19,177 nt of DNA from a virus (lineage: Duplodnaviria > Heunggongvirae > Uroviricota > Caudoviricetes), in the IMG/VR virus record IMGVR_UViG_638341196_000003; one strand, written 5' to 3'. This document shows, piece after piece, positions 475 to 17,243 of the stretch (the first letter of the stretch is position 1; every line of letters starts with the position of its first letter). The notes under the pieces were generated by a model, which searched no databases, was not told the origin of the DNA, and saw nothing but the letters and a program-made list of their open reading frames with translations. The translations under genes and the position numbers were made by a program.

Positions 475-1002
475 ATGCAGCATTTAAAAAATATTACGGC
501 GGGTAATCCAAAAACGGTTGAACAATATCAATTGACAAAGGACTTTGATGTTGTCTGGTTTTTTTCAGAAGATGGTAAGAACTGGTACGAAGAACAAAAG
601 TATTTTGCTGATGACACGATAAAAATAGCGTACGACAAAGATAATATCATCCACTATGTGGAAAAGGATGTGACAGCTATCAGACCGGATGGATTAAGTG
701 TTGTTGAAGTGGCGGATATTACTGCTAACCGACGGGCGGACATTTCAGGGAACTGGATGTTTAAGGACGGCAAAGTGATTAAACGCGTTTATACGGCAGA
801 GGAATTACAGCAGCAGGCAGAAATTCGGAAAGCCAGACTTCTTGCAGATGCTGAATCCGTGATTTTGCCGCTGGAGCGCGCGGTCAGACTGAACATGGCA
901 ACAGATGAGGAGCGTAGCCGACTGGAATCATGGGAACGCTACAGCGTTCTGGTCAGTCGTGTGGATCCTGCAAATCCTGAATGGCCGGAAATGCCGCAAT
1001 AA
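475..1002 (+). CDS. Tail fiber assembly protein (P2 gpG-like chaperone)
   Basis: 175-aa ORF directly after the fiber gene, same length as P2 gpG; C-terminal ...[12 protein letters not shown] resembles Tfa-type chaperones. Identity is from recall, not a search. Confidence 0.7.
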
Positions 1003-1042
1003 GTTGTATTAGCTTACATATCTATGGCACAGAGTAAAGCCT

Positions 1043-1087
1043 AATCTGATAGTCCGCTCTGTGCCAGGAGCAGACATTGCCAACGTT
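1043..1087. repeat. Copy 1 of a ~30-38 bp repeat family (core TGTGCCAGGAGC-R-GAC-R-TTGCCA), about 40 bp after the G stop
   Basis: Hand alignment: 1052-1087 matches 5062-5097 at about 30 of 38 positions (direct); 1043-1080 matches the reverse complement of 10722-10759 at 31 of 38. Confidence 0.5.
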
Positions 1088-1470
1088 ATGACCCTCGATT
1101 ACATCAAAGAGCCCTATAGCCGAAACCTGCACCATAGCCATCTCTGTAGAATTCGTCCTAGGGGCTTTTAACAGACCTAGTTGTATGGATCGGAAGGAAA
1201 TATTAAAGCTCAAGGCGTCAGTCCAGTGCTGTCCTGTTTGCTTACCACACGAAAGAGTGCTGCTTGTACCTGCTAACTAATGGTATGCGGAGTGAGGGGG
1301 GCGGGTAGAACCAAAAGCACTTACTACGTGTGGCGCTCTCCTGGAAGAGGAGACGTCGAAGTGATAACGCTAACAACAGTCTTACTGGTGATGCAAATAA
1401 TGCTAGCTGGTCTGGTTGCCATCAAGCAACTGACCGGACGCCCGTAAGGGATGGAGGAACTTGATTAAAG

Positions 1471-1492
1471 GCAGGGGGGTTACCTCCCCTGC
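1471..1492 (+). terminator. Stem-loop of an intrinsic terminator split by IS2; its U-tract continues at 2829-2840
   Basis: GCAGGGG(G)...CCCCTGC stem ends exactly at the IS2 left junction. Removing IS2 and one copy of the CCTGC duplication gives GCAGGGGGGTTACCTCCCCTGC followed by CTTTTTTCGTTT. Confidence 0.5.
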
Positions 1493-1583
1493 TAGACTGG
1501 CCCCCTGAATCTCCAGACAACCAGTATCACTTAAATAAGTGATAGTCTTAATACTAGTTTTTAGACTAGTCATTGGAGTACAG

Positions 1584-1949
1584 ATGATTGATGTCTTAGG
1601 GCCGGAGAAACGCAGACGGCGTACCACACAGGAAAAGATCGCAATTGTTCAGCAGAGCTTTGAACCGGGGATGACGGTCTCCCTCGTTGCCCGGCAACAT
1701 GGTGTAGCAGCCAGCCAGTTATTTCTCTGGCGTAAGCAATACCAGGAAGGAAGTCTTACTGCTGTGGCCGCCGGAGAACAGGTTGTTCCTGCCTCTGAAC
1801 TTGCTGCCGCCATGAAGCAGATTAAAGAACTCCAGCGCCTGCTCGGCAAGAAAACGATGGAAAATGAACTCCTCAAAGAAGCCGTTGAATATGGACGGGC
1901 AAAAAAGTGGATAGCGCACGCGCCCTTATTGCCCGGGGATGGGGAGTAA
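1584..1949 (+). CDS. insC: IS2 transposase OrfA (InsC)
   Basis: 121-aa product [26 protein letters not shown]... with helix-turn-helix; ATG is the 16th codon of the listed ORF 1539-1949. Confidence 0.9.
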
Positions 1950-2812
1950 GCTTAGTCAGCCGTTGTCTCCGGGTGTCGCGTGCGCAGTTGCACGTCATTC
2001 TCAGACGAACCGATGACTGGATGGATGGCCGCCGCAGTCGTCACACTGATGATACGGATGTGCTTCTCCGTATACACCATGTTATCGGAGAGCTGCCCAC
2101 GTATGGTTATCGTCGGGTATGGGCGCTGCTTCGCAGACAGGCAGAACTTGATGGTATGCCTGCGATCAATGCCAAACGTGTTTACCGGATCATGCGCCAG
2201 AATGCGCTGTTGCTTGAGCGAAAACCTGCTGTACCGCCATCGAAACGGGCACATACAGGCAGAGTGGCCGTGAAAGAAAGCAATCAGCGATGGTGCTCTG
2301 ACGGGTTCGAGTTCTGCTGTGATAACGGAGAGAGACTGCGTGTCACGTTCGCGCTGGACTGCTGTGATCGTGAGGCACTGCACTGGGCGGTGACTACCGG
2401 CGGCTTCAACAGTGAAACAGTACAGGACGTCATGCTGGGAGCGGTGGAACGCCGCTTCGGCAACGATCTTCCGTCGTCTCCAGTGGAGTGGCTGACGGAT
2501 AATGGTTCATGCTACCGGGCTAATGAAACACGCCAGTTCGCCCGGATGTTGGGACTTGAACCGAAGAACACGGCGGTGCGGAGTCCGGAGAGTAACGGAA
2601 TAGCAGAGAGCTTCGTGAAAACGATAAAGCGTGACTACATCAGTATCATGCCCAAACCAGACGGGTTAACGGCAGCAAAGAACCTTGCAGAGGCGTTCGA
2701 GCATTATAACGAATGGCATCCGCATAGTGCGCTGGGTTATCGCTCGCCACGGGAATATCTGCGGCAGCGGGCTTGTAATGGGTTAAGTGATAACAGATGT
2801 CTGGAAATATAG
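1907..2812 (+). CDS. insD: IS2 transposase OrfB (InsD), DDE catalytic domain; normally made as an OrfAB fusion by -1 frameshifting
   Basis: 301-aa ORF overlapping orfA; A6G slippery run (GCAAAAAAGTGG) near 1896-1905; C-terminal [12 protein letters not shown] motif typical of the IS3 family. Confidence 0.9.
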
Positions 2813-2856
2813 GGGCAAATCCACCTGCCTTTTTTCGTTTCTGCGCAAGTTAGCTC

Positions 2857-2868
2857 TGTTATTATAAT
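2857..2868 (+). promoter_or_regulatory. Putative sigma70 -10 region (TGTTATTATAAT, extended -10 like) for the downstream 227-aa ORF
   Basis: TG-n-TATTAT / TATAAT hexamers 30-40 bp upstream of the ATG at 2899, immediately right of the IS2 end; no clear -35. Confidence 0.3.
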
Positions 2869-2898
2869 CCTTACTCACACTGTAAGGACATAGTTCAA

Positions 2899-3582
2899 AT
2901 GACTGAATGGCTTAATGCACATTTTGGTGCAGACGCAGCTACCTATCTTAGCTTATTAGTCGGCGTACTGGCACTGTTTGGTATTGGGGGCGGTGTTACA
3001 TATAGAATCAGACAGCAAAACAACATAAAACAGAAGGCAAAGAAAACCGAGGGTGATGTGAACCAGGCCGGGCGGGATATTAATCAGACCACCAACGTTT
3101 ACCACACATCCAATGAATCTACTGAGGACCCTGTAAAAAAAAAGCAAGATGAACATGATCTGAAGATAATCGACCAGATCCTTGAATTGCTGCCTTATGA
3201 GGATACTACTCAATGGGTTGAGCAGAGCTACCTGAGCGGTATACGGCAAGATGTTTGCTTAAACATTGAAAAAGCTGAAAAATTTAGCGGTGAAAAGTAT
3301 CGGTTATTCAATACTGAAGTGAATGGTGCGAAAGACGCTTTTTTGGACGCTATGACCGCATACGTAGATAGTACGCTACCATTTATGAGTGTTGATTACC
3401 CGAACAGAAAGCCAGTGATGCTAAGCCTTCCCCATGACTGGAAGAGTAAGAGTGTTGAATCGGAGGCAAACTTCCGCTTTCATCAGCAAAATGTGCGTGA
3501 AACATCGGGGGGGATGATTGCGCGCTATGAGGATTTTGTCAGGACATTTAAGGCTCATGGATTCATAAGCGATAAACTGTAA
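2899..3582 (+). CDS. Hypothetical membrane-anchored protein (227 aa): one N-terminal transmembrane helix, charged linker, soluble C-terminal domain; non-phage cargo
   Basis: Intact ORF with ATG start; hydrophobic segment YLSLLVGVLALFGIGGGV at residues ~16-33, then a Lys/Glu-rich linker. Own promoter-like region upstream and an intrinsic terminator downstream (rebuilt across the IS10-like insertion). No family recognised. Confidence 0.5.
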   Translation: MTEWLNAHFGADAATYLSLLVGVLALFGIGGGVTYRIRQQNNIKQKAKKTEGDVNQAGRDINQTTNVYHTSNESTEDPVKKKQDEHDLKIIDQILELLPYEDTTQWVEQSYLSGIRQDVCLNIEKAEKFSGEKYRLFNTEVNGAKDAFLDAMTAYVDSTLPFMSVDYPNRKPVMLSLPHDWKSKSVESEANFRFHQQNVRETSGGMIARYEDFVRTFKAHGFISDKL

Positions 3583-3675
3583 AGGCGCAGTGGGTCAGCG
3601 AACACCGCAACGACAGAACCGCGTAAGCGGTAAAATCAGCTTGTTAACTGGCGAGTTTATAGCCGTCCCTCCGGG

Positions 3676-4976
3676 CTGAGGGATCCCCACAAAATTACTG
3701 CTAATAAACCAGCACCATATTTCGGTAGGTTCTGGACAGATGGTTTAGAACTGTGCTCAGTACTGTTCGTCTTAAAATAAGTGGCGAGTGTCGAAGAACA
3801 TTCTTCGCTAACGTCAGATATGAGATAACCCGCCGGGATTTAATGCTGTTAGCCTGATATTTCAGGTGTAACCCTTTATTTTCAGCGTGATAACCGAGTA
3901 ACCACATTACGATAGTGCTCAACGTTGCCAGCAGACTCAGAACCAGAATTCTTCCTGTTGAACGACTTTTGCTGGCCCGAAGACCAAATCCGAAGCGCCC
4001 GTTCTTTTCATCACGAAAGTTTTGCTCTATCTGCATTCGCCGACTGTATAACTTGATGATTTCTCGCGCTCTGAAGTCATTTGTACTGCTGAAGATCAAC
4101 CAGGCTTCTTTTGCTGATTTGCTCTGTTCTTTGTCTGTTTTGTTTAAACCACTCTGACCTTTCGAACGTTTCTTTTTTCGCCCTTTTGCCGATTTCTTAT
4201 AGGTGTAAAAATGCCCCCGGATGCTTTTTTTCCTTTCTTTAACCAGCCTTCCAGCCTCCATATATTCCGGTGTTTTACATTCAGGGCTATCCGACACTTT
4301 TAACCATCTTTCAGGCGCGTTATCGAGGCAATACTGAACGTTATTTCTGATCCGACCAATAAAATCCCAGCCCAGAGAAGTAATATGGTGAAACCATGCG
4401 CTCTGAAATCCAGCATCCGTGACAATAATAACCCTGGCATCGGGGGGCAGGGATTGAGCAAGGGAATCAAGGAAATCATGTTGTATCAATGGATTATTTT
4501 GTTTTTCAGAAGGAACAACCTTACTCAATAACGGAATGGAACGCCCGTCACACAGAAGGCTGGCACGAAGAACATGATGCTCCTGGGAGGGATAGCCACT
4601 CCAGTCTACGGCTATTACACATAAAGATAACTGCCGTGTCAGCATTGAAGTGATATTCCTGAAAATCATTGGAATATCGCGATGGAGCGCCTCATTACCC
4701 ATGAGGCGATCAATACGTTTGCTCTTATTCTTAACTTGTGCATTACCCGGGAAAAAACGTCCGATACTGGTCAGCGTCAGAGATGCTCCGTTGATTAACG
4801 CCACTGTGGCATCCATCAGGGCATTTTGTCGGTACTGATGAAATGGTGCTAAGGCATCCCGGAAGAAATTCTGACATACTTTATGAACAGGCATAGCAGT
4901 GATCTCATTGAATTGTTGGCACAAATCAGTAGATCACATAATGCTATGTCTGTCTCGTTTTCTGGGAATTCCTCAG
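3676..4976 (-). mobile_element. IS4-family, IS10-like insertion sequence (1301 bp)
   Basis: Imperfect terminal inverted repeats CTGAGGGATCCCCACAAAATT (left) and CTGAGGAATTCCCAGAAAACG (right, reverse complement), 17 of 23 matching, resembling the IS10 end CTGATGAATCCCC. Perfect 9-bp duplication CCCTCCGGG at 3667-3675 and 4977-4985. Confidence 0.7.
3701..4924 (-). CDS. IS4-family (IS10 group-like) DDE transposase, 407 aa
   Basis: Shares landmarks with IS10 transposase as recalled (KRIDRLxGN, VDWS, RAS...GRS, DAGF, IYSxRMQIEQxFRD); stop 25 bp from the left inverted repeat. Confidence 0.85.
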   Translation of the reverse strand: MCQQFNEITAMPVHKVCQNFFRDALAPFHQYRQNALMDATVALINGASLTLTSIGRFFPGNAQVKNKSKRIDRLMGNEALHRDIPMIFRNITSMLTRQLSLCVIAVDWSGYPSQEHHVLRASLLCDGRSIPLLSKVVPSEKQNNPLIQHDFLDSLAQSLPPDARVIIVTDAGFQSAWFHHITSLGWDFIGRIRNNVQYCLDNAPERWLKVSDSPECKTPEYMEAGRLVKERKKSIRGHFYTYKKSAKGRKKKRSKGQSGLNKTDKEQSKSAKEAWLIFSSTNDFRAREIIKLYSRRMQIEQNFRDEKNGRFGFGLRASKSRSTGRILVLSLLATLSTIVMWLLGYHAENKGLHLKYQANSIKSRRVISYLTLAKNVLRHSPLILRRTVLSTVLNHLSRTYRNMVLVY

Positions 4977-5061
4977 CCCTCCGGGGCGGCTTTTTTATGA
5001 CTATAATCGACAGAATCACCTGAACGTCCAGGTGGGTTTCCCTGACAGGACGTCAAGGAAT

Positions 5062-5097
5062 GTTCGCTTTGTGCCAGGAGCGGACGTTGCCAGCATT
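5062..5097. repeat. Copy 2 of the repeat family, direct relative to copy 1, about 150 bp upstream of the 261-aa ORF
   Basis: Hand alignment to 1052-1087, about 30 of 38 identical, including an uninterrupted TGTGCCAGGAGC. Confidence 0.5.
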
Positions 5098-5246
5098 GAG
5101 TTTTCAGTTTTCAAAGGTATATCTTTAGATTTAGTTCACTTAGAATGAGCGTGTTAAAGTTTTCGGTTATGTGAGTATATTGAACATAACAAATAAACAA
5201 TAATTTTTGTATTCCATTTAGGATATAAAAAAGAGGGATTTGAGTT

Positions 5247-6032
5247 ATGTACGATTATAGTTTTTTACTTACTCCATCTACAGGATTTGTTAAAGGATTA
5301 TGTGGAGTTTGGTCGAATGATTTCTCTATAAATGATGATTCTGACTCTGATTTAGGGCAAACAGATATTCATTTACTTTCATCTCCTCATTTGAATATCA
5401 TATCCGACCCAAATGAATTGGCTTCCAAGTTAAAAGGTTTGTTGATGCTCATGAACGGCGCACTTAGCGTTCTTTATGGTTTTGAAAGATATCAATCTTT
5501 TGGTCCTCTTTCTATTTCTGGAAGTGAAGGCATTAATTACTCGGAAATATGCGGCTTTAAATCAATGGATGTAACTCAGGTAAACCCCTTTAATTTCCAT
5601 GACATACAGCAACCACACCCTCGCGCTGATAATTTTTCACGATTAATTAATTTATCATCTAAACATGAATCCTTACGTGTTGTTTTAGGTATGTGTGCCT
5701 TAGGTTATGATTGGGTTAATCTTTATCGTTTGTGGGAAACAATTAGAGAATATGTATATGATAAATATGTGAAAGGTATACTAAATTTCCCCGACGCTTA
5801 TAAAGGCAAGAAATATCAGAGAGATAAAGTAATTAGCATGGCTTTTAATATTGATGAAAAGGAAATCAGCAGATTCACGGGCACTGCTAATAGCTTTGAA
5901 CTGTTAGGGTATCTTGCGAGACATGGAAAGGGAAGTTCCGGAGGGATATTAAAAAATCCGATGTCAAGAGTTGACGCAAGCATTTTCGTACACAAAGCAA
6001 CTTACAAATATTGTAAGTTATTTTTGATGTAA
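5247..6032 (+). CDS. Hypothetical protein (261 aa), AT-rich non-phage cargo gene
   Basis: Intact ORF with ATG and an upstream AGAGGGA ribosome-binding site; the gene and its upstream region are visibly AT-rich compared with the flanking tail genes. No transmembrane segment or recognisable motif. Confidence 0.5.
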   Translation: MYDYSFLLTPSTGFVKGLCGVWSNDFSINDDSDSDLGQTDIHLLSSPHLNIISDPNELASKLKGLLMLMNGALSVLYGFERYQSFGPLSISGSEGINYSEICGFKSMDVTQVNPFNFHDIQQPHPRADNFSRLINLSSKHESLRVVLGMCALGYDWVNLYRLWETIREYVYDKYVKGILNFPDAYKGKKYQRDKVISMAFNIDEKEISRFTGTANSFELLGYLARHGKGSSGGILKNPMSRVDASIFVHKATYKYCKLFLM

Positions 6033-6124
6033 GTAAAAAGTTGAAGCTATAATACTCAAAGTATCGAAAACTACGTTCGTCGTGCACTCGAAAACAATAT
6101 GCTTATTGTGTCTGCACTAATTAC

Positions 6125-6161
6125 TCAAGGTCCGAGAAAAATGGCGAAGCTCATCTTTTTC
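6125..6161 (-). terminator. Intrinsic terminator serving the minus-strand HNH-like gene (hairpin GGCGAAGC/GCTTCGCC followed on the minus strand by AUUUUUCUC)
   Basis: Perfect 8-bp inverted repeat at 6133-6140 and 6154-6161, about 33 nt past the stop at 6194-6196; lies between two convergent cargo genes. Confidence 0.45.
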
Positions 6162-6193
6162 AGGCTTCGCCAACTTGAGTTATTGGTTAAAAT

Positions 6194-6372
6194 TCATTTA
6201 GGAATAATAGAATGCAATTCGTGACTCACCTGGATTTCATAGTGTTTCAATAGTTCTCCGATGTTAATTCCTACTACCTTACGAACTGCGCCGAGGGAGA
6301 AGTTAAGCTCCTCAATGCCCGGCCGATCTGGCGTTGAATTCATATAGTGTCGGCACGCACGGACAATTGACT
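6194..6372 (-). pseudogene. 3' segment (last 58 codons plus stop) of the HNH-like cargo gene interrupted by the IS911-like element
   Basis: Minus-strand frame at 6370 continues in phase the frame ending at 8845 once the IS and one copy of the ACT duplication are removed. The N-terminal residues of listed ORF 6194-6451 lie inside the IS end and are an artefact. Confidence 0.6.
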
Positions 6373-6380
6373 TGAAGTGG

Positions 6381-8509
<2,129 letters not shown>

Positions 8510-8510
8510 G

Positions 8511-8772
8511 TAGCCTTTTTTAATATTTCATTCTCCATTTCAATGCGTTGTAGCTTTTTCCTCAGCTTACGTATTTCGATTTGTTCTGGTGTTATCGGAG
8601 AGGCTTTTGGTGTTTTGCCCTGACGCTCATCACGCAGTTGTTTGACCCATCTTGTCATTGTGGAAAGGCCAACATCCATAGCTTTGGCGGCATCTGCCAC
8701 CGTGTATTTCTGGTCAACAACCAGTTGAGCGGATTCGCGTTTAAACTCTGCGCTAAAATTTCTTTTTTTCAT
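8511..8772 (-). pseudogene. IS911-like orfA, 5' portion (codons 1-88) cut by IS30; the last 12 codons and stop resume at 7288-7247
   Basis: [56 protein letters not shown]...EILKKAT, then IS30; downstream of IS30 the frame reads [12 protein letters not shown]-stop. Confidence 0.8.
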
Positions 8773-8844
8773 TGGAGCACCTGTGTTGTTCTGAGGCGAG
8801 CATATCACCTCTGTTCAGGTGGCCAAATTCAGTGTGCCACTTCA

Positions 8845-9421
8845 ACTCGACGATCAACGATAGCGGAGACTCAGGTGCAATCTCGGAGCGAATCGCCGTA
8901 AGAGAGAGTCGGAGCTCCTTCAAAGAATCCGAGACTCGTGCTGGATCCTCTTGAGCATATGGCAGATAAAGAGAACTCTTGTCTTCCAATAAATGGATCA
9001 ACCGCAGAGCAATTTTCTCGTCTGGGCGATGCGATAGAAATTGAAACATTAGCCTCTTTCCTCCCTCCAAGCACTCCTTCATTAGTGATTCGTGGTTACG
9101 TTTCCATTTTCGCAAATACTCGGCGGGGTAGCCCATACCGCCATTCTTATCAACTAAATCAGCACAAGCTCCGCACAACCATATAGCATTTTTTATGCTC
9201 TTCCGCTCTGTTTCTGACTGAGACATGTCATAGCGCGGTCCGCCAGGGCTCGCCGCGCAGATATGCGCCGCCTCACCCGTCTTGATAGAAAGATTTTCCG
9301 CCAATTGATCCGGGCCGATTGTTACCCTATGACAAGAGGGATTGCTACAAATATATGTAGCGCGCTCTGCTACCTTACCTACAACGCTTGGAGGAAAGTT
9401 GTGCCTATTTGTCTTGGTCAT
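8845..9421 (-). pseudogene. 5' segment (codons 1-192) of the HNH-like cargo gene interrupted by the IS911-like element
   Basis: ATG at 9421; product carries CSNPSCH...GEAAHICAASPGG...NAIWLCGACADLVD, an HNH-type Cys/His/Asn signature with non-canonical substitutions. The tail of listed ORF 8753-9421 beyond 8845 is read-through into the IS. Confidence 0.6.
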
Positions 9422-9492
9422 AAAAGTTATGCTTCTTTGTTTTTTTCATCTATGTGGGGAGAATAAAATCATACTTTTTATATCTGATCCTA

Positions 9493-10645
9493 AATAGCTG
9501 CGCTTAATACCGCTACACTTTTGCCAGTCCATGTTTGCCTCCGGGGAATGGGCTGACGGTTTCCATAAAATGGCGAACTTTTTTCAACAGTTGCCACATT
9601 GAGCGGCACTGATGATTACGCGTTATTGTGTCGTGAAGTGCCTGCCATAGCCGTTCAACATGATTCACCCATGGCGAGTAAACCGGCTGATAAATGACCC
9701 TGAACTTCGGGTTCTCCTTCAGCCAGCTCTGTGTTTCCCGGCTTTTGTGGATAATGTAGTTGTCCACGATCAGCGTGATGGTTTTCGCCCGACGGTATGT
9801 CGCTTTAAGCCGCTTCAGCAGGCTGATGAACAGCGCCGAACTTTTGCTGTTGCCGCCCACATAGCTGACTTTACCTGTCCCGCTGTGCAGCGCTCCGGCC
9901 AGATAATATTTTTCATTCTGTCCCGGCGTGACCACCCGTTTTTGCTGTCCGCGCAGTTGCCAGTCCGCACCGATTTTGGGATGAAGATGGATATCCACTT
10001 CATCTTCATAAAAGACCGGATGCTCTGCGCTGCATTCGTCCAGTGCTTTATGGATTGCTGCCATCTTTTCATCTTTATGCGGGTCACGGATACGCAGAGT
10101 TGGCGCAGCCCTTCGCCACACAATCCCCGCAGACGGCAACCAGCGGCGAACGGTTCCGGCATTTAACTGGCAACCGGTTATCTCATTGATTTTTATTGCC
10201 AGCAGTTCTGTACTCCAGCGTGAACGCTGGTAGACAAAGTCGCCGGGAGAATGTTTTACCAGCTCACGTAACAGTGTGCAGATATGCTCAAACGGCCAGC
10301 GACGGGCACGCCCGGCAGGTAATGATTTCAGTCCCTCAACACCCGACTGCGTGAACCAGTTAATCCAGCGTCCAACAGAGGAACGGGCGCAGCAGAGCGT
10401 TCTGGCAACGTCGCTGACACGGTCGCCCCGGTGCAGCATCAGCATGGCAGTCAGTCTGCGGGCATAATTTTTATCGTGTGTTTTATGGATGGCTTTCTGC
10501 ATCAGGCGTCGTTCGTCACGGGAAATTGGTGCTATGATCGGCATTGCTCAGTCCGGTTGGTGATTTGTTTTGATTTGGCGATTGATCAGATCGCACAATC
10601 CGGGCTAAGTTCCCTCAAAATGATCTACTATTCCGCGCAGCTATT
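9493..10645 (-). mobile_element. IS630 insertion sequence, complete (1153 bp)
   Basis: 343-aa transposase; imperfect terminal inverted repeats (AATAGCTGCGC...); flanking TA duplication at 9491-9492 and 10646-10647; reconstructed target GATCCTAGGTCTG contains CTAG. Confidence 0.9.
9513..10544 (-). CDS. IS630 (Tc1/mariner superfamily) transposase
   Basis: 343-aa product MPIIAPISRDERRLMQKAIHKTHDKNYARRL... matches IS630 transposase from recall. Confidence 0.9.
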   Translation of the reverse strand: MPIIAPISRDERRLMQKAIHKTHDKNYARRLTAMLMLHRGDRVSDVARTLCCARSSVGRWINWFTQSGVEGLKSLPAGRARRWPFEHICTLLRELVKHSPGDFVYQRSRWSTELLAIKINEITGCQLNAGTVRRWLPSAGIVWRRAAPTLRIRDPHKDEKMAAIHKALDECSAEHPVFYEDEVDIHLHPKIGADWQLRGQQKRVVTPGQNEKYYLAGALHSGTGKVSYVGGNSKSSALFISLLKRLKATYRRAKTITLIVDNYIIHKSRETQSWLKENPKFRVIYQPVYSPWVNHVERLWQALHDTITRNHQCRSMWQLLKKVRHFMETVSPFPGGKHGLAKV

Positions 10646-10721
10646 TAGGTCTGACCAGCAACCTATTGATCAAAAAACCAAGATATTAGCTAAAAAAAAT
10701 CAGCATACTTGAGACCAAGCT

Positions 10722-10759
10722 CAATGTCCGCTCCTCGCTCAAAGCAGACTGTCAGATTT
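10722..10759. repeat. Copy 3 of the repeat family, inverted relative to copy 1, about 180 bp upstream of FI
   Basis: 10722-10759 matches the reverse complement of 1043-1080 at 31 of 38 positions by hand alignment. Confidence 0.5.
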
Positions 10760-10819
10760 GATAGCATTTGGGCTATGTAAATTGTCAGGCGGAAAATGAG
10801 TGAGTACAAATCAGGACAG

Positions 10820-10849
10820 GCGGGCGAATTGCCCGCATTTTCTTTATCT
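10820..10849 (+). terminator. Terminator-like hairpin (GCGGGC-GAATT-GCCCGC followed by ATTTTCTTTATCT) upstream of FI
   Basis: Perfect 6-bp GC stem with 5-nt loop and a T-rich tail on the + strand; could insulate the FI late operon from the cargo island. Confidence 0.35.
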
Positions 10850-10941: not shown

Positions 10942-12132
10942 ATGAGTGACTATCATCACGGCGTGCAGGTGCTGGAGATTAACGACGGCACCCGCGTCAT
11001 TTCCACCGTATCCACGGCCATTGTCGGCATGGTCTGCACGGCCAGCGATGCAGATGCGGAAACCTTCCCCCTCAATAAACCGGTGCTGATTACCAATGTG
11101 CAGAGCGCAATTGCAAAGGCCGGTAAAAAAGGCACGCTGGCGGCGTCGTTACAGGCCATCGCTGACCAGTCAAAACCGGTCACCGTTGTTGTGCGCGTGG
11201 AAGACGGCACCGGCGACGACGAAGAAACGAAGCTCGCGCAGACCGTTTCCAATATCATCGGCACCACCGACGAAAACGGTCAGTACACCGGACTGAAAGC
11301 CCTGCTGGCGGCGGAGTCGGTAACCGGTGTTAAACCGCGCATTCTCGGTGTGCCGGGACTGGATACCAAAGAGGTGGCTGTTGCACTGGCATCAGTCTGT
11401 CAGAAGCTGCGCGCTTTCGGGTATATCAGCGCATGGGGCTGTAAAACCATTTCCGAGGTGAAAGCCTACCGCCAGAATTTCAGCCAGCGTGAGCTGATGG
11501 TCATCTGGCCGGATTTCCTCGCATGGGATACGGTCACCAGTACCACCTCCACCGCGTATGCCACCGCCCGTGCGCTGGGGCTGCGCGCTAAAATCGACCA
11601 GGAGCAGGGCTGGCATAAAACGCTGTCCAACGTCGGGGTGAACGGTGTTACCGGCATCAGCGCGTCCGTATTCTGGGATTTGCAGGAGTCCGGCACCGAT
11701 GCTGACCTGCTTAACGAGTCAGGCGTCACAACGCTGATTCGCCGTGACGGTTTCCGCTTCTGGGGTAACCGTACCTGCTCTGATGACCCGCTGTTCCTCT
11801 TTGAAAACTACACCCGCACCGCGCAGGTGCTGGCCGACACGATGGCTGAGGCGCACATGTGGGCGGTGGACAAGCCCATCACCGCAACGCTGATTCGCGA
11901 CATCGTTGACGGCATCAATGCCAAATTCCGTGAGCTGAAAACAAACGGCTATATCGTGGATGCGACCTGCTGGTTCAGCGAAGAATCCAACGATGCGGAA
12001 ACCCTCAAGGCCGGAAAACTGTATATCGACTACGACTATACACCGGTGCCTCCTCTCGAAAACCTGACCCTGCGCCAGCGTATTACCGATAAATACCAGG
12101 CAAATCTGGTCACCTCGGTTAACAGCAATTAA
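10942..12132 (+). CDS. FI: Contractile tail sheath protein (P2 gpFI-like)
   Basis: 396-aa ORF, same length as P2 FI; position and order match the P2 FI-FII-E-T-U-D cluster. Confidence 0.9.
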   Translation: MSDYHHGVQVLEINDGTRVISTVSTAIVGMVCTASDADAETFPLNKPVLITNVQSAIAKAGKKGTLAASLQAIADQSKPVTVVVRVEDGTGDDEETKLAQTVSNIIGTTDENGQYTGLKALLAAESVTGVKPRILGVPGLDTKEVAVALASVCQKLRAFGYISAWGCKTISEVKAYRQNFSQRELMVIWPDFLAWDTVTSTTSTAYATARALGLRAKIDQEQGWHKTLSNVGVNGVTGISASVFWDLQESGTDADLLNESGVTTLIRRDGFRFWGNRTCSDDPLFLFENYTRTAQVLADTMAEAHMWAVDKPITATLIRDIVDGINAKFRELKTNGYIVDATCWFSEESNDAETLKAGKLYIDYDYTPVPPLENLTLRQRITDKYQANLVTSVNSN

Positions 12133-13146: not shown

Positions 13147-15586
13147 CAATGTAAAATTACAGGTATTGCTCAGGGCTGTTGACCAGGCATCCCGCCCGTT
13201 TAAATCCATCCGCACAGCGAGCAAGTCGCTGTCGGGGGATATCCGGGAAACACAAAAATCACTGCGCGAGCTGAACGGTCACGCATCCCGTATTGAGGGA
13301 TTTCGCAAGACCAGTGCACAGCTCGCCGTGACTGGTCATGCACTTGAAAAGGCACGGCAGGAGGCCGAAGCCCTTGCCACACAGTTTAAAAACACCGAAC
13401 GTCCCACCCGTGCTCAGGCGAAAGTGCTGGAATCCGCAAAGCGTGCGGCGGAGGACTTACAGGCGAAATATAACCGCCTGACGGATTCCGTTAAACGCCA
13501 GCAGCGGGAACTGGCCGCTGTGGGAATTAATACCCGCAATCTTGCACATGATGAGCAGGGACTGAAAAACCGTATCAGTGAAACCACCGCACAACTTAAC
13601 CGTCAGCGCGACGCGCTGGCGCGTGTCAGTGCGCAACAGGCAAAACTTAACGCAGTAAAACAGCGTTATCAGGCCGGAAAGGAACTGGCCGGAAATATGG
13701 CCTCAGTAGGCGCTGCCGGTGTGGGGATTGCGGCGGCGGGAACGATGGCCGGAGTTAAGTTGCTGATGCCCGGTTATGAGTTTGCGCAGAAAAACTCAGA
13801 ATTGCAGGCCGTGCTAGGAGTGGCAAAAGACTCCGCCGAAATGGCCGCGCTACGCAAGCAGGCGCGCCAGCTCGGTGACAATACCGCCGCCTCAGCGGAT
13901 GATGCGGCCGGTGCGCAGATTATCATTGCGAAAGCGGGTGGAGATGTTGATGCCATTCAGGCGGCAACGCCGGTCACGCTGAATATGGCGCTGGCGAACC
14001 GCCGCACGATGGAAGAAAACGCCGCCCTGCTGATGGGGATGAAATCCGCCTTTCAGCTTTCAAACGATAAGGTTGCTCATATCGGGGATGTTCTCTCCAT
14101 GACGATGAACAAAACCGCCGCCGATTTTGACGGCATGAGCGATGCGCTGACCTATGCCGCACCTGTGGCAAAAAATGCCGGTGTCAGCATTGAAGAAACC
14201 GCCGCAATGGTCGGGGCACTGCATGATGCAAAAATTACCGGTTCAATGGCGGGGACGGGAAGCCGTGCCGTGTTAAGCCGCCTGCAGGCACCGACGGGAA
14301 AAGCATGGGATGCACTGAAAGAGCTTGGTGTGAAAACCTCAGACAGCAAGGGAAACACCCGGCCAGTATTTACCATTCTGAAAGAAATGCAGGCCAGTTT
14401 TGATAAAAACCGGCTCGGTACTGCCCAGCAGGCTGAATACATGAAAACCATTTTCGGGGAGGAGGCCAGCTCAGCCGCTGCTGTGCTGATGACTGCCGCC
14501 TCAACCGGAAGGCTGGACAAACTGACCGCTGCGTTTAAAGCCTCAGACGGGAAGACCGCGGAGCTGGTAAATATCATGCAGGACAACCTCGGCGGTGACT
14601 TTAAGGAGTTTCAGTCCGCTTATGAGGCGGTAGGGACTGACCTGTTTGACCAGCAGGAAGGCGCGCTGCGTAAGCTCACGCAGACGGCCACAAAGTATGT
14701 GTTAAAACTCGACGGCTGGATACAGAAAAACAAATCACTGGCGTCAACTATCGGCCTCATTGCCGGTGGCGCACTGGTGCTGACTGGCATCATCGGTGCC
14801 ATTGGTCTTGTAGCCTGGCCGGTTATCACCGGCATCAATGCCATTATCGCGGCAGCAGGCGCAATGGGGGCAATCTTCACGACGGTTGGCAGTGCTGTTA
14901 TGACGGCCATCGGGGCGATTAGCTGGCCGGTTGTGGCCGTGGTGGCCGCCATTGTCGCCGGGGCGTTGCTTATCCGTAAATACTGGGAGCCTGTCAGCGT
15001 ATTCTTCGGCGGTGTGGTTGAAGGGCTGAAAGCGGCATTTGCGCCGGTGGGGGAACTGTTCACGCCACTTAAGCCGGTGTTTGACTGGCTGGGTGAAAAG
15101 TTACAGGCCGCGTGGCAGTGGTTTAAAAACCTGATTGCACCGGTCAAAGCCACCCAGGACACCCTGAACCGTTGCCGTGACACGGGCGTCATGTTCGGGC
15201 AGGCACTGGCTGACGCGCTGATGCTGCCGCTTAATGCGTTCAACAAACTGCGCAGCGGTATTGACTGGGTACTGGAAAAACTCGGCGTCATCAACAAAGA
15301 GTCAGACACACTTGACCAGACCGCCGCCAGAACTCATGCCGCCACGTATGGCACCGGTGGTTATATTCCGGCGACCAGCTCTTATGCAGGCTATCAGGCT
15401 TATCAGCCGGTCACGGCACCGGCTGGCCGCTCTTATGTGGACCAGAGTAAAAACGAATATCACATCAGCCTGACCGGTGGTACTGCGCCGGGGACACAGC
15501 TTGACCGCCAGTTACAGGATGCGCTCGAAAAATACGAGCGGGATAAACGAGCGCGCGCCCGTGCCAGCATGATGCATGACGGTTAA
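13139..15586 (+). CDS. T: Tail tape measure protein (P2 gpT-like)
   Basis: 815-aa ORF, Ala/Gly-rich with predicted coiled-coil and hydrophobic segments; same length and position as P2 T. Confidence 0.9.
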   Translation: MSNNVKLQVLLRAVDQASRPFKSIRTASKSLSGDIRETQKSLRELNGHASRIEGFRKTSAQLAVTGHALEKARQEAEALATQFKNTERPTRAQAKVLESAKRAAEDLQAKYNRLTDSVKRQQRELAAVGINTRNLAHDEQGLKNRISETTAQLNRQRDALARVSAQQAKLNAVKQRYQAGKELAGNMASVGAAGVGIAAAGTMAGVKLLMPGYEFAQKNSELQAVLGVAKDSAEMAALRKQARQLGDNTAASADDAAGAQIIIAKAGGDVDAIQAATPVTLNMALANRRTMEENAALLMGMKSAFQLSNDKVAHIGDVLSMTMNKTAADFDGMSDALTYAAPVAKNAGVSIEETAAMVGALHDAKITGSMAGTGSRAVLSRLQAPTGKAWDALKELGVKTSDSKGNTRPVFTILKEMQASFDKNRLGTAQQAEYMKTIFGEEASSAAAVLMTAASTGRLDKLTAAFKASDGKTAELVNIMQDNLGGDFKEFQSAYEAVGTDLFDQQEGALRKLTQTATKYVLKLDGWIQKNKSLASTIGLIAGGALVLTGIIGAIGLVAWPVITGINAIIAAAGAMGAIFTTVGSAVMTAIGAISWPVVAVVAAIVAGALLIRKYWEPVSVFFGGVVEGLKAAFAPVGELFTPLKPVFDWLGEKLQAAWQWFKNLIAPVKATQDTLNRCRDTGVMFGQALADALMLPLNAFNKLRSGIDWVLEKLGVINKESDTLDQTAARTHAATYGTGGYIPATSSYAGYQAYQPVTAPAGRSYVDQSKNEYHISLTGGTAPGTQLDRQLQDALEKYERDKRARARASMMHDG

Positions 15587-16080: not shown

Positions 16081-17243
16081 TGCTGGATGCGCTGACATTT
16101 GATGCAGGCAGTACGCTGACGCCGGATTACATGCTGATGCTCGACAGCAGGGATATTACCGGCAATATCAGCGACCGTCTGATGAGCATGACCCTGACGG
16201 ATAACCGGGGCTTTGAGGCTGACCAGCTTGATATTGAACTGAACGATGCCGACGGGCAGGTCGGGCTGCCGGTTCGTGGCGCTGTCCTGACGGTGTATAT
16301 CGGCTGGAAAGGTTTTGCCCTGGTATGCAAAGGGAAATTTACCGTTGATGAGGTTGAACACCGGGGCGCACCGGATGTGGTCACCATCCGCGCCCGGAGT
16401 GCAGATTTTCGCGGGACGCTCAATTCCCGCCGGGAAGGCTCATGGCATGACACCACGCTCGGTGCGATTGTTGAGGCGATAGCCTCCCGGAACAGGCTGG
16501 AAGCCAGTGTCGCTCCGTCACTGGCCGGAATTAAAATTCCGCACATCGACCAGTCGCAGGAGTCTGATGCGAAATTCCTGACCCGCCTTGCTGAACGCAA
16601 CGGCGGTGAGGTGTCGGTAAAAATGGGAAAACTGCTGTTTCTCAAAGCGGGGCAGGGGGTGACGGCCAGCGGTAAAAAAATCCCGCAGATTACCATCACC
16701 CGCAGCGACGGCGACCGTCATCATTTTGCGATTGCTGACCGTGGAGCCTACACCGGCGTAATGGCAAAGTGGTTACACACCAAAGACCCGAAGCCACAAA
16801 AGCAGAAGATAAAACTGAAACGCAAAAAGAAAGAGAAACACCTGCGCGCACCGGAGCACCCGAAAGCGAAACCGGTCAGGCAGAAGAAAGCGCCTAAAGT
16901 ACCGGAAGCGCGCGAAGGTGAATACATGGCCGGTGAGGCTGATAACGTTTTTGCCCTGACTACGGTATATGCCACAAAAGCGCAGGCCATGCGCGCCGCT
17001 CAGGCGAAGTGGGATAAGCTGCAACGGGGCGTGGCGGAGTTCTCCATCAGTCTGGCTACTGGTCGGGCAGATATTTACACGGAAACGCCGGTCAAAGTGT
17101 CAGGTTTTAAGCGCGTCATAGACGAGCAGGACTGGACAATCACTAAGGTGACACACTTTCTGAATAATAGCGGCTTCACGACGTCCTTAGAGCTTGAGGT
17201 CAGGCTTTCTGATGTGGAGTACGAAACAGAAGGTGATGAGTAA
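16080..17243 (+). CDS. D: Tail protein D (P2 gpD-like)
   Basis: 387-aa ORF with a Lys-rich internal segment (KPQKQKIKLKRKKKEK), same length and position as P2 D. Confidence 0.85.
   Translation: MLDALTFDAGSTLTPDYMLMLDSRDITGNISDRLMSMTLTDNRGFEADQLDIELNDADGQVGLPVRGAVLTVYIGWKGFALVCKGKFTVDEVEHRGAPDVVTIRARSADFRGTLNSRREGSWHDTTLGAIVEAIASRNRLEASVAPSLAGIKIPHIDQSQESDAKFLTRLAERNGGEVSVKMGKLLFLKAGQGVTASGKKIPQITITRSDGDRHHFAIADRGAYTGVMAKWLHTKDPKPQKQKIKLKRKKKEKHLRAPEHPKAKPVRQKKAPKVPEAREGEYMAGEADNVFALTTVYATKAQAMRAAQAKWDKLQRGVAEFSISLATGRADIYTETPVKVSGFKRVIDEQDWTITKVTHFLNNSGFTTSLELEVRLSDVEYETEGDE

Follow-up and report, generated by a model that had tools for sequence, protein, structure and literature searches.

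The 19,177-nt stretch of Caudoviricetes DNA in IMG/VR record IMGVR_UViG_638341196_000003, hereafter the window, carries an island of cargo genes between homologues of the P2 genes G and FI, and three copies of a short repeat bound and divide this island. By comparing the repeats and their surroundings with those of other bacterial, plasmid and viral genomes, we reached the view that they are probably crossover sites of 24-28 bp for the conservative, site-specific exchange of gene cassettes. We also raise, much more tentatively, the possibility that they belong to an unrecognised, Proteobacteria-wide exchange system, in which heterospecific L- and R-type sites together with a recombinase of ~200 aa would allow prophages, CP4-like islands and conjugative plasmids to trade genes. 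Locally, the repeats are of a kind already known from P2 cargo boundaries, with one additional copy inside the island.

Boundary repeats and shared cassettes

The window was searched with a 28-nt consensus (GTCCGCTTTGTGCCAGGAGCGGACATTG), allowing up to three mismatches, and 200 dinucleotide-preserving shuffles of the window served as controls. Exactly three matches were found, i.e., copies 1 and 2 on the plus strand and copy 3 on the minus strand (Table 1), with two, two and three mismatches, respectively. The shuffles yielded none. An unaided repeat finder paired 1052-1087 with 5062-5097 (83% over 36 nt) and 5066-5089 with 10722-10745 (88% complementarity), and by alignment the inverted similarity of copies 1 and 3 extends outward to a total of ~70 nt (~1011-1079 versus 10722-10790). 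A first-pass annotation of the window had described three copies of a ~30-38 bp repeat, two direct and one inverted. Their number and places were borne out by the consensus search, the repeat finder and the sequence itself; the reported identity of copies 1 and 2 (~30 of 38) is consistent with the sequence, and a base-by-base count reproduced the 31 of 38 given for copy 1 against the reverse complement of copy 3 (1042-1079 versus 10722-10759). The repeat is therefore real, but the conserved unit is not 38 nt long: it is a 24-nt core plus RTTG. As judged from position frequencies, this core consists of 9-nt inverted arms, GTCCGCTYY and RRAGCGGAC, around a central hexamer GWGCSA, with RTTG following on the cargo side. 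Two central positions separate the sites into an L type (TGTGCCA) and an R type (TGAGCGA); copies 1 and 2 are of the L type and copy 3 is of the R type.

Apart from five insertion sequence (IS) elements, the island reads as two cassettes, as judged from its IS-free homology to loci in two other genomic contexts. After subtraction of the IS elements, a defective lambdoid (e14-like) prophage next to icd in E. coli Z1323PEC0014 (locus L003) has a segment that matches window 1053-10749 at 99% identity, and a CP4-like island in E. coli SE11 (locus L004) has one that matches window 1053-5085 at 98-99%. Cassette 1 without its IS elements is 98-99% identical to L004 6708-8094 and L003 7723-8994, and cassette 2, likewise, is 99% identical to L003 8986-11128. 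The breaks in homology between the window and these partners lie inside cores: homology to the SE11 island starts at 1053, inside copy 1, and homology to the e14-like prophage stops at 10749, the outer end of copy 3. The SE11 island has the same three-site layout (+, +, -) and the same first cassette, followed after the core equivalent to copy 2 by a second cassette that differs from that of the window. Both window cassettes are present in the e14-like locus, where an IS110-family element interrupts the first site, and E. coli cM2a carries the entire island, IS-free, within a P2-like prophage. Among E. coli genomes, ~900 match the window up to 1066-1090 and diverge beyond, 18 that match the upstream side of copy 2 break at 5085-5090 while 15 continue through, and ~1,000 P2-like prophages match from 10718-10737 onward. 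No direct (target-site) duplications were found to flank the cassette units. The first-pass annotation had offered 'exchange sites delimiting cargo modules' as one explanation of the repeats, and cassettes that are 98-99% identical in unrelated contexts, with homology ending inside the cores, speak for it.

The core is also the insertion site of a mobile element. An IS110-family element with an 'RNA-guided' transposase interrupts it at the same position (GCTYTGTGCCAGG / IS / AGCRGAC) in three unrelated loci, namely the e14-like prophage, plasmid pHH107-3 and a CP4-6-like island. Since the flanking half-core was included in most of the best 40 of 64 records matched by BLAST with the left IS110 junction, the element seems to target the core. 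This recurrent insertion shows the core to be a discrete, recurrent target.

The outer copies correspond to repeats that had already been annotated in P2-like phages. When phage records were searched with the left copy, 94 P2-like phages matched, among them AJ512679 and AJ512680, which contain the Z regions of P2-EC45 and P2-EC46 and come from the Haggard-Ljungquist laboratory. The stretch matching copy 1 is annotated in GenBank as a 'left inverted repeat', with a 'right inverted repeat' at the opposite end of the cargo. The window's left repeat is 87.7-92.6% identical to the left repeats of these two records, copy 1 aligning with those of both P2-EC45 and P2-EC46, and copy 3 aligns with the annotated right repeat of P2-EC46. 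In phage P2 itself, an L site at 15423-15446 and an R site at 17021-17044 (record positions) flank the open reading frames (ORFs) of Z/fun. Inverted repeats around Z/fun of P2-like coliphages were reportedly the subject of a paper by Nilsson, Karlsson and Haggard-Ljungquist (Mol Biol Evol 2004). As summarised in a review, Nilsson et al. (2004) proposed site-specific recombination at the Z-region repeats, by which lysogenic-conversion genes would be exchanged (PMC8987985). Given the GenBank annotation and this summary, the outer repeat pair and the general recombination idea are already in the literature, and some of the present results may already be there too.

The window agrees with the P2 Z/fun repeats in locus (between G and FI), in sequence and in proposed role. 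It differs in that a third, internal, direct copy (5062-5089) breaks the one-left/one-right inverted layout and divides the cargo into two cassettes, and the functional unit is narrowed here from ~100 bp to the core of 24-28 bp. The internal copy extends the P2 Z-region pattern and does not exclude the window from it. What goes beyond the P2 annotation are the two hexamer types, the placement of the exchange zone, the occurrence of sites far outside P2 and a candidate recombinase. Literature searches by concept found nothing on a wider cassette-exchange system, and a full-text search for core strings returned no paper; the wider system containing these sites thus appears to be undescribed in the literature searched. 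The inversions reported in P2-like phages (PMC4272514) were considered as an instance of the same phenomenon and set aside, being unrelated, Hin-type tail-fibre switches.

Site types, distribution and the zone of exchange

A 20-nt pattern (GCTYTGWGCSAGGAGCRGAC) was searched in bacterial contigs, at one genome per species, and in viral contigs, and was found in at least 120 stretches of each. The bacterial matches listed were mostly from Enterobacterales, with others from Idiomarina, Pseudomonas and several Alphaproteobacteria, and the matches outside the Enterobacterales also keep flanking palindrome bases that are absent from the search pattern. A relaxed core scan gave 346 matches in 984 kb of these loci versus one in shuffled sequence. 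The full junction, in which an R site, an 18-nt spacer and an L site follow one another, was searched as a 74-nt consensus; it occurred in 2,209 of 5,426 complete E. coli genomes, at a median of one and a maximum of five places per genome, and in at least 748 plasmids, mainly of Klebsiella, Enterobacter and Pantoea. Cassette arrays with such sites are present in many Enterobacterales, in other Proteobacteria and on plasmids. The first-pass annotation had counted a motif scattered over unrelated loci as a refutation. The motif does indeed occur in other prophages, islands, plasmids and genera, but because it keeps the same role and a low copy number there, its spread generalises the exchange-site reading and does not refute it.

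The order of sites is regular. L(+) with R(-) polarity is kept in 145 of 150 neighbouring site pairs. Where L is followed by R, the pair encloses 0.4-4 kb of cargo (61 cases); where R is followed by L, the two usually form a tight junction, in which their starts lie ~42 nt apart and the spacer (CTTCAGCTCAGTTAGCTC) is conserved. Pairs in direct orientation, L-L (27) and R-R (22), also enclose cargo. The median cargo is 1.3 kb, and the cassettes show a weak bias in gene orientation, 106 of 177 (60%) reading from L to R. In P2-like viral contigs that contain both G and FI (~two dozen), L is always nearer to G and R nearer to FI, so that the order G, L, cargo, R, FI, with repeat copies flanking the cargo as first proposed for the window, holds in every one. 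Most of these contigs have a single cassette and some have L-R-L-R (L133, L143, L196); islands of the window's L-L-R type were found in viral contigs L163, L173 and L199. The window and P2 carry single half-sites in place of full junctions.

Two further observations concern the sites themselves. The 18-nt spacer between R and L is conserved across genera (e.g., L226 3126-3191, L133 1321-1386 and L151 13872-13937), which suggests a separate function for it, for example as an accessory binding site. In metagenome-assembled genomes of Alphaproteobacteria (L026 ~4300-4400, L075 6845-6960, L060 and L069), related palindromes with core-like arms and other centres, e.g., GTCCGCTTTACCCCCGAAAGCGGAC and GTCCGCTCTGGGTCAGAAGCGGAC, adjoin canonical L cores, a hint that site types beyond L and R exist. 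One of the array-bearing viral contigs, L226, also has Rfam matches at 7457-7654 to isrK and to C4 antisense RNA with its a1/b1 targets; these are P1/P7-type immunity RNAs, unrelated to the repeats.

To place the exchange within the core, 466 unique sites were compared pairwise by shared cargo flank or by shared outer context, which gave 22 groups (31 pairs) with the same cargo in different outer contexts and 28 groups (139 pairs) with different cargo in the same outer context. Pairs with the same cargo differ at core positions 1-9 (61% at position 4 and 51% at position 8), show no differences at positions 10-15, differ in 16-25% at positions 16-17 and in at most 9% at positions 18-28. Pairs with the same context, on the other hand, differ in at most 7% at positions 1-15, in 39-48% at positions 16-17, diverge from position 16 onward and show 14-79% differences at the four positions after the core. 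Across the 466 sites, therefore, the outer arm tracks the flanking context and the inner arm tracks the cargo. Rare inner-arm variants, e.g., ATGAACGGAC and AGAAGCGGAA, accompany their cargo into new contexts, and particular outer arms remain with their context while the inner arm and RTTG go with the cargo. The conserved stretch is longer than the interval in which crossovers fall: none lies left of position 8, and few lie beyond position 21 on the right. From the breakpoint profile and the linkage of the arms, the exchange zone is placed at the invariant hexamer GWGCSA and the next two bases (core positions 10-17). The outer arms of some exchange partners have diverged strongly, e.g., AGCAGCCCT versus GTCCGCTTT, and because of this divergence the identity common to such partners is only ~15 nt, which is short and lies below the usual minimum for RecA-dependent recombination. 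Inverted arms around an overlap of 6-8 bp in which exchange occurs are what define a simple tyrosine-recombinase site, and the core has both.

A candidate recombinase and competing explanations

Genes linked to the cassettes were sought by clustering of neighbouring ORFs and by jackhmmer over 120 loci of 8 kb from the core-pattern search. No partner gene universal to the loci emerged from the clustering. A protein of ~200 aa that consists of the Phage_integrase catalytic domain only (Pfam E 1e-17 to 1e-19) recurs beside sites, and its translation, inspected by eye, contains LRGCD, HSMRR, LLGH and the RY tyrosine, i.e., the catalytic motifs of tyrosine recombinases. This protein, which is annotated only in general terms, keeps at least 75% identity in Enterobacterales, Idiomarina, Cycloclasticus and other taxa, and its taxonomic range runs parallel to the range over which the core occurs. 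Of 5,426 E. coli genomes, 795 have it, and in this species its gene lies within L/R site arrays. Recombinases at least 85% identical to the query have ~20 distinct upstream sequences, and in nearly all of these contexts an R-type core lies 31-35 nt (mostly 33) before the start codon. The gene-proximal arm (ATAAGGGAC) and the hexamer are near-invariant, and the distal arm varies with the neighbour. This is how an integrase gene would look next to its attachment site once it had integrated many times independently.

In NCBIfam, the small recombinase best matches the XerA and XerC models, below threshold; its match to the 'tyrosine-type DNA invertase' model is weak (E 2e-5 to 3e-6, 24-27 bits versus a cut-off of 222), and a PDB sequence search matched no solved structure. 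In marine contigs L317-L324, a recombinase that is 84% identical (gene at 10001-10603) lies between the arsenic- and copper-resistance genes of an element resembling an integrative and conjugative element (ICE), and no recognisable core was found within 10 kb of it. Overall, the enzyme is likely a tyrosine recombinase that acts in trans, and this conserved, catalytic-domain-only protein is the best candidate for it.

The comparisons show the sites and their order, the cassettes in common, the place of the exchange zone and the linkage of the recombinase gene to a site; from these we infer that an enzyme carries out the exchange conservatively, that L does not recombine with R and that the small recombinase is this enzyme. 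Exchange within or beside the hexamer would leave the outer arm with the resident backbone, and the inner arm would leave with the cargo. The difference between their overlap sequences would prevent L from recombining with R. Since the two site types have different hexamers and are always oppositely oriented, an L-R cassette could be replaced, with neither inversion nor deletion, by one crossover between L sites and another between R sites. A circle with one L site would integrate at a resident L site to give L-cargo-L, and window cassette 1, which lies between L copies 1 and 2, is what would be expected from such an integrated L-bearing circle. The window would then hold a P2 Z/fun locus with two cassettes, the second lying between L copy 2 and R copy 3, and its five IS elements would have inserted after the cassettes had arrived. 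The recombinase would act in trans, since most cassettes, those of the window included, do not encode it.

Several points weigh against site-specific exchange by this enzyme. No recombinase gene was found in the window, the small recombinase is present in only 6 of the 120 core-pattern loci of species genomes, and recombinase loci in the marine ICE-like contigs and in Idiomarina (L315/L316) have no recognisable core next to them. Many of the loci compared are related, and the 31 and 139 pairs of the breakpoint profile are thus counts of non-independent events; in addition, positions 16-17 are only partly linked to the cargo. The evidence is wholly comparative, and a crossover in an invariant hexamer is indistinguishable from homologous exchange in a short identical stretch. 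Homologous recombination between the short conserved cores, of the RecA or the phage Red/RecT type, with no dedicated recombinase and with the cores conserved for another reason, is the main rival, and we regard it as unlikely. It would agree with the lack of a recombinase in most loci and with the frequent co-residence and recombination of prophages; the bases of the exchange zone are the most invariant ones, so that homologous crossovers, too, would have to show up there, and the partial linkage at positions 16-17 implies that the crossover does not fall at a single phosphodiester bond. It is, however, difficult to reconcile with partners that share as little as ~15 nt, or with an exchange zone whose limits are sharp despite a longer conserved stretch, and it leaves unexplained both the strict opposite orientation of two hexamer types and a recombinase gene fixed 33 nt from an R site with a variable distal arm.

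The remaining alternatives concern what kind of element the cores might be. We consider it improbable that they are regulatory palindromes (stabilising hairpins, insulators or operators) or relatives of repetitive extragenic palindromic (REP) sequences and bacterial interspersed mosaic elements (BIMEs), whose placement between genes would alone make them coincide with module boundaries. In favour of this, the cores are imperfect intergenic palindromes, of two types in alternating orientation as in BIMEs; gene orientation is weakly biased, and the full junction folds as one long hairpin (-26 to -28 kcal/mol, z ~ -8) with two mismatches. REPs, however, occur in hundreds of copies per genome, as against a median of one and at most five junctions per E. 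coli genome, and they are species-specific, unlike a sequence that is near-identical across orders and classes (Enterobacterales, Idiomarina, Alphaproteobacteria). No RAYT-like gene was among the recurrent neighbours. The first-pass annotation had also allowed for a regulatory or RNA element, an option that gained no support. At permissive thresholds, Rfam gave nothing at any core in the window and four array-rich loci, no promoter- or terminator-like site was found at a core, and the three window cores, folded as single-stranded DNA, did no better than shuffles. The 'loop' of the core is more conserved than its 'stem', pair 4-21 of which is unpaired in about one-third of sites, and there were almost no compensatory changes. 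A hairpin function of single cores was consequently dropped, and the linkage of one arm to cargo and of the other to context would in any case be left unexplained. Still less probable, in our view, is an integrase-less cluster of integron-type attC sites recombined as folded single strands by an integron integrase. The full junction does start with ..AAC/AAT and end with GTT/ATT, it is a long imperfect hairpin in which the two L/R differences become mismatches, and the arrays have one polarity and cassette-like cargo with a median of 1.3 kb; yet exchange falls in the central hexamer of each half-site and not at the G/TT of a terminal box, the inner arm and RTTG move with the cargo, genes are only weakly oriented, and the window and P2 have single half-sites. 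No integrase of IntI size was found in the 8-kb loci, though array ends often lay outside them, and an IntegronFinder/HattCI screen of 10,705 phage genomes makes no mention of P2-like phages (PMC9892861). A non-autonomous DDE-type transposon, or a mobile insertion cassette moved in trans, with the cores as its terminal inverted repeats, strikes us as scarcely credible. Cargo does lie between inverted L(+) and R(-) repeats, and the same cargo occurs at unrelated sites, but the units are not flanked by target-site duplications, the outer arm stays with the context instead of moving with the cargo, and direct L-L (27) and R-R (22) units are common. Both the transposon and the attC model were rejected on the breakpoint profile, and the sites fail the defining features tested for REP/BIME elements and transposon ends and lack the crossover position that defines attC sites.

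The exchange-site reading invites comparison with described recombination systems, and the sites are best read as resembling integrons and pdif modules while belonging to neither. In Acinetobacter plasmids, pdif modules are flanked by dif-like sites that depend on XerC/XerD and contain resistance and toxin-antitoxin genes. Setting this general knowledge beside the architecture observed here, we find in common small modules, sites of ~28 bp built as arm/6-bp centre/arm, alternating orientation, plasmid arrays and a recombinase that is mostly not encoded; the cores show the pdif-style layout (28 bp, 11-nt arm/6-nt centre/11-nt arm, alternating orientation), which is an architectural resemblance only. 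Unlike pdif sites, those described here have two hexamer types and not an asymmetry of XerC-side and XerD-side arms, their hosts are prophages, islands and plasmids of Enterobacterales, and the candidate enzyme is a protein of ~200 aa and not XerC/XerD. The core is not known to resemble the dif, cer or psi consensus sequences. With integrons the system shares arrays of one polarity, in which the cassettes are short and mostly hold a single gene and the junctions between them are structured, imperfect palindromes, as well as cargo that includes candidate defence and toxin-antitoxin genes. It differs from them in crossover position, in weak gene orientation bias, in single half-sites serving as boundaries, in the lack of a fit to attC boxes and in that no IntI was found in the loci. 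Engineered recombinase-mediated cassette exchange (RMCE; loxP/lox2272, FRT/F3) likewise uses inverted sites with identical arms and different spacers to flank an exchangeable cassette, but it is a laboratory design, whereas the present arrangement would be a natural one, and its L/R incompatibility would follow from the hexamers. Finally, FimB and FimE are also ~200 aa long, are essentially catalytic domains and act at short inverted sites, and the candidate has a weak match to the invertase model; its scores are nevertheless far under the family cut-offs, and sites and contexts differ.

Island anatomy, cargo and implications

The features of the island are listed in Table 1. The 9-bp inverted repeat that the first-pass annotation had noticed beside copy 1 is present, as GGCACAGAG (1026-1034) and CTCTGTGCC (1057-1065), and GGCACAGAG falls within the degenerate half-site at 1014-1040. 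This half-site is conserved in P2-like contexts and begins 36 nt before copy 1; the spacing of cores in full junctions is 25-43 nt. On the basis of this spacing and conservation, the 9-bp repeat is best read as the surviving centre, i.e., a relic, of a degenerate inverted outer half-site. A palindrome at 5031-5056 (GTCCAGGTGGGTTTCCCTGACAGGAC), 31 nt before copy 2, has only its GTCC...GGAC ends in common with the core; it could be what is left, in very degenerate form, of the R half-site of an earlier junction.

Table 1. Features of the island and its edges, in window coordinates unless a locus is named.
Feature	Position	Strand	Remarks
P2 gene G homologue (tail fibre assembly)	475-1002	+	Pfam Caudo_TAP E 1.5e-33; left backbone edge
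Degenerate outer half of left junction	1014-1040	-	Central TGGCACAG of inverted L-like core kept, arms lost
Copy 1, L-type core	1052-1079	+	GTCCGCTCT-GTGCCA-GGAGCAGAC + ATTG; left boundary of cassette 1
Cassette 1	1080-5061	+	227-aa ORF at 2899-3582 and two IS insertions
IS2	1493-2823		In cassette 1
IS4-family, IS10-like element	3676-4976		In cassette 1
Copy 2, internal L-type core	5062-5089	+	GTTCGCTTT-GTGCCA-GGAGCGGAC + GTTG; boundary between cassettes 1 and 2
Cassette 2	5090-10721		261-aa ORF at 5247-6032 (+) and disrupted 250-aa nuclease-like ORF (-)
250-aa nuclease-like ORF	6194-6375 and 8845-9421	-	Split by IS3-family element
IS3-family element	6376-8844		In cassette 2; interrupts 250-aa ORF and is itself split by IS30
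IS30	7289-8509		Inside IS3-family element
IS630	9493-10645		In cassette 2, intergenic
Copy 3, R-type core	10722-10749	-	GTCTGCTTT-GAGCGA-GGAGCGGAC + ATTG; right boundary of cassette 2
Outer extension of right inverted repeat	10750-10790	-	Mirrors 1011-1051; from alignment and flank comparison
Terminator-like hairpin	10820-10836	+	Outside island, upstream of FI; separate from repeat
P2 gene FI homologue (tail sheath)	10942-12132	+	From ORF list; right backbone edge
IS110-family element (other loci)	L003 6226-7722; L005 ~4014-6289; L006 ~6014-7511		L005 copy interrupted by IS1

At the right edge, FI gave tblastn matches of 99% in P2-like viral contigs. The IS elements were assigned from their terminal inverted repeats, Pfam matches and target duplications against IS-free relatives. 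None of the five ends in the repeat, in line with the first-pass annotation, which had found no IS end to account for the copies; the inverted-repeat pairs I2, I3, I6 and I10 of the island, considered as a source of the repeats, belong to the IS10-like element, IS2, IS30 and IS630. The five insertions lie within 9.7 kb, and the same P2 island in E. coli cM2a (NZ_CM176588) has none, a difference that suggests an IS-rich, Shigella-like host for the window.

As for the cargo, the 227-aa and 261-aa ORFs had no match in Pfam, NCBIfam, PADLOC or PHROGs. The N-terminal part of the 250-aa ORF, which is intact at L003 10203-10955, matches PADLOC PDC-M68A (E 2e-24) and CBASS/SAVED-HNH endonuclease effectors, the resemblance being to the nuclease domain of both. 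Because an IS3-family element breaks this ORF, the candidate defence gene is probably inactive in the window. In the alternative second cassette of SE11, a DUF2971 protein at L004 8953-9681 matches PADLOC PDC-S31 (E 5e-95), and its gene adjoins a 205-aa ORF without a clear family. With PDC-M68A-like and PDC-S31 proteins in the cassettes, the cargo looks like candidate defence genes, as expected for the P2 variable locus (PMC9122126).

Roughly one in five E. coli genomes carries a P2-like prophage, and the variable loci of these prophages serve as reservoirs of anti-phage systems. The route by which cargo enters and leaves the G-FI locus has so far not been worked out; in a 2022 hotspot study, the two P2-like variable loci are cited and mechanism is discussed only for cos-adjacent hotspots (PMC9122126). 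With a 24-bp site of two types, a map of the exchange zone and a candidate for the enzyme, the mechanism can be tested directly. The core also provides a sequence tag for cassette boundaries, which in Klebsiella, Enterobacter, Pantoea and others, on prophages, islands and plasmids alike, could lead to further candidate defence genes. Should the wider system prove real, it would be a natural counterpart of RMCE and a third system beside integrons and pdif modules, through which defence and other accessory genes would be traded among P2-like and other prophages, CP4-like islands and conjugative plasmids. Provided that the L/R logic is correct, cassette exchange would also gain a compact tool of natural origin.

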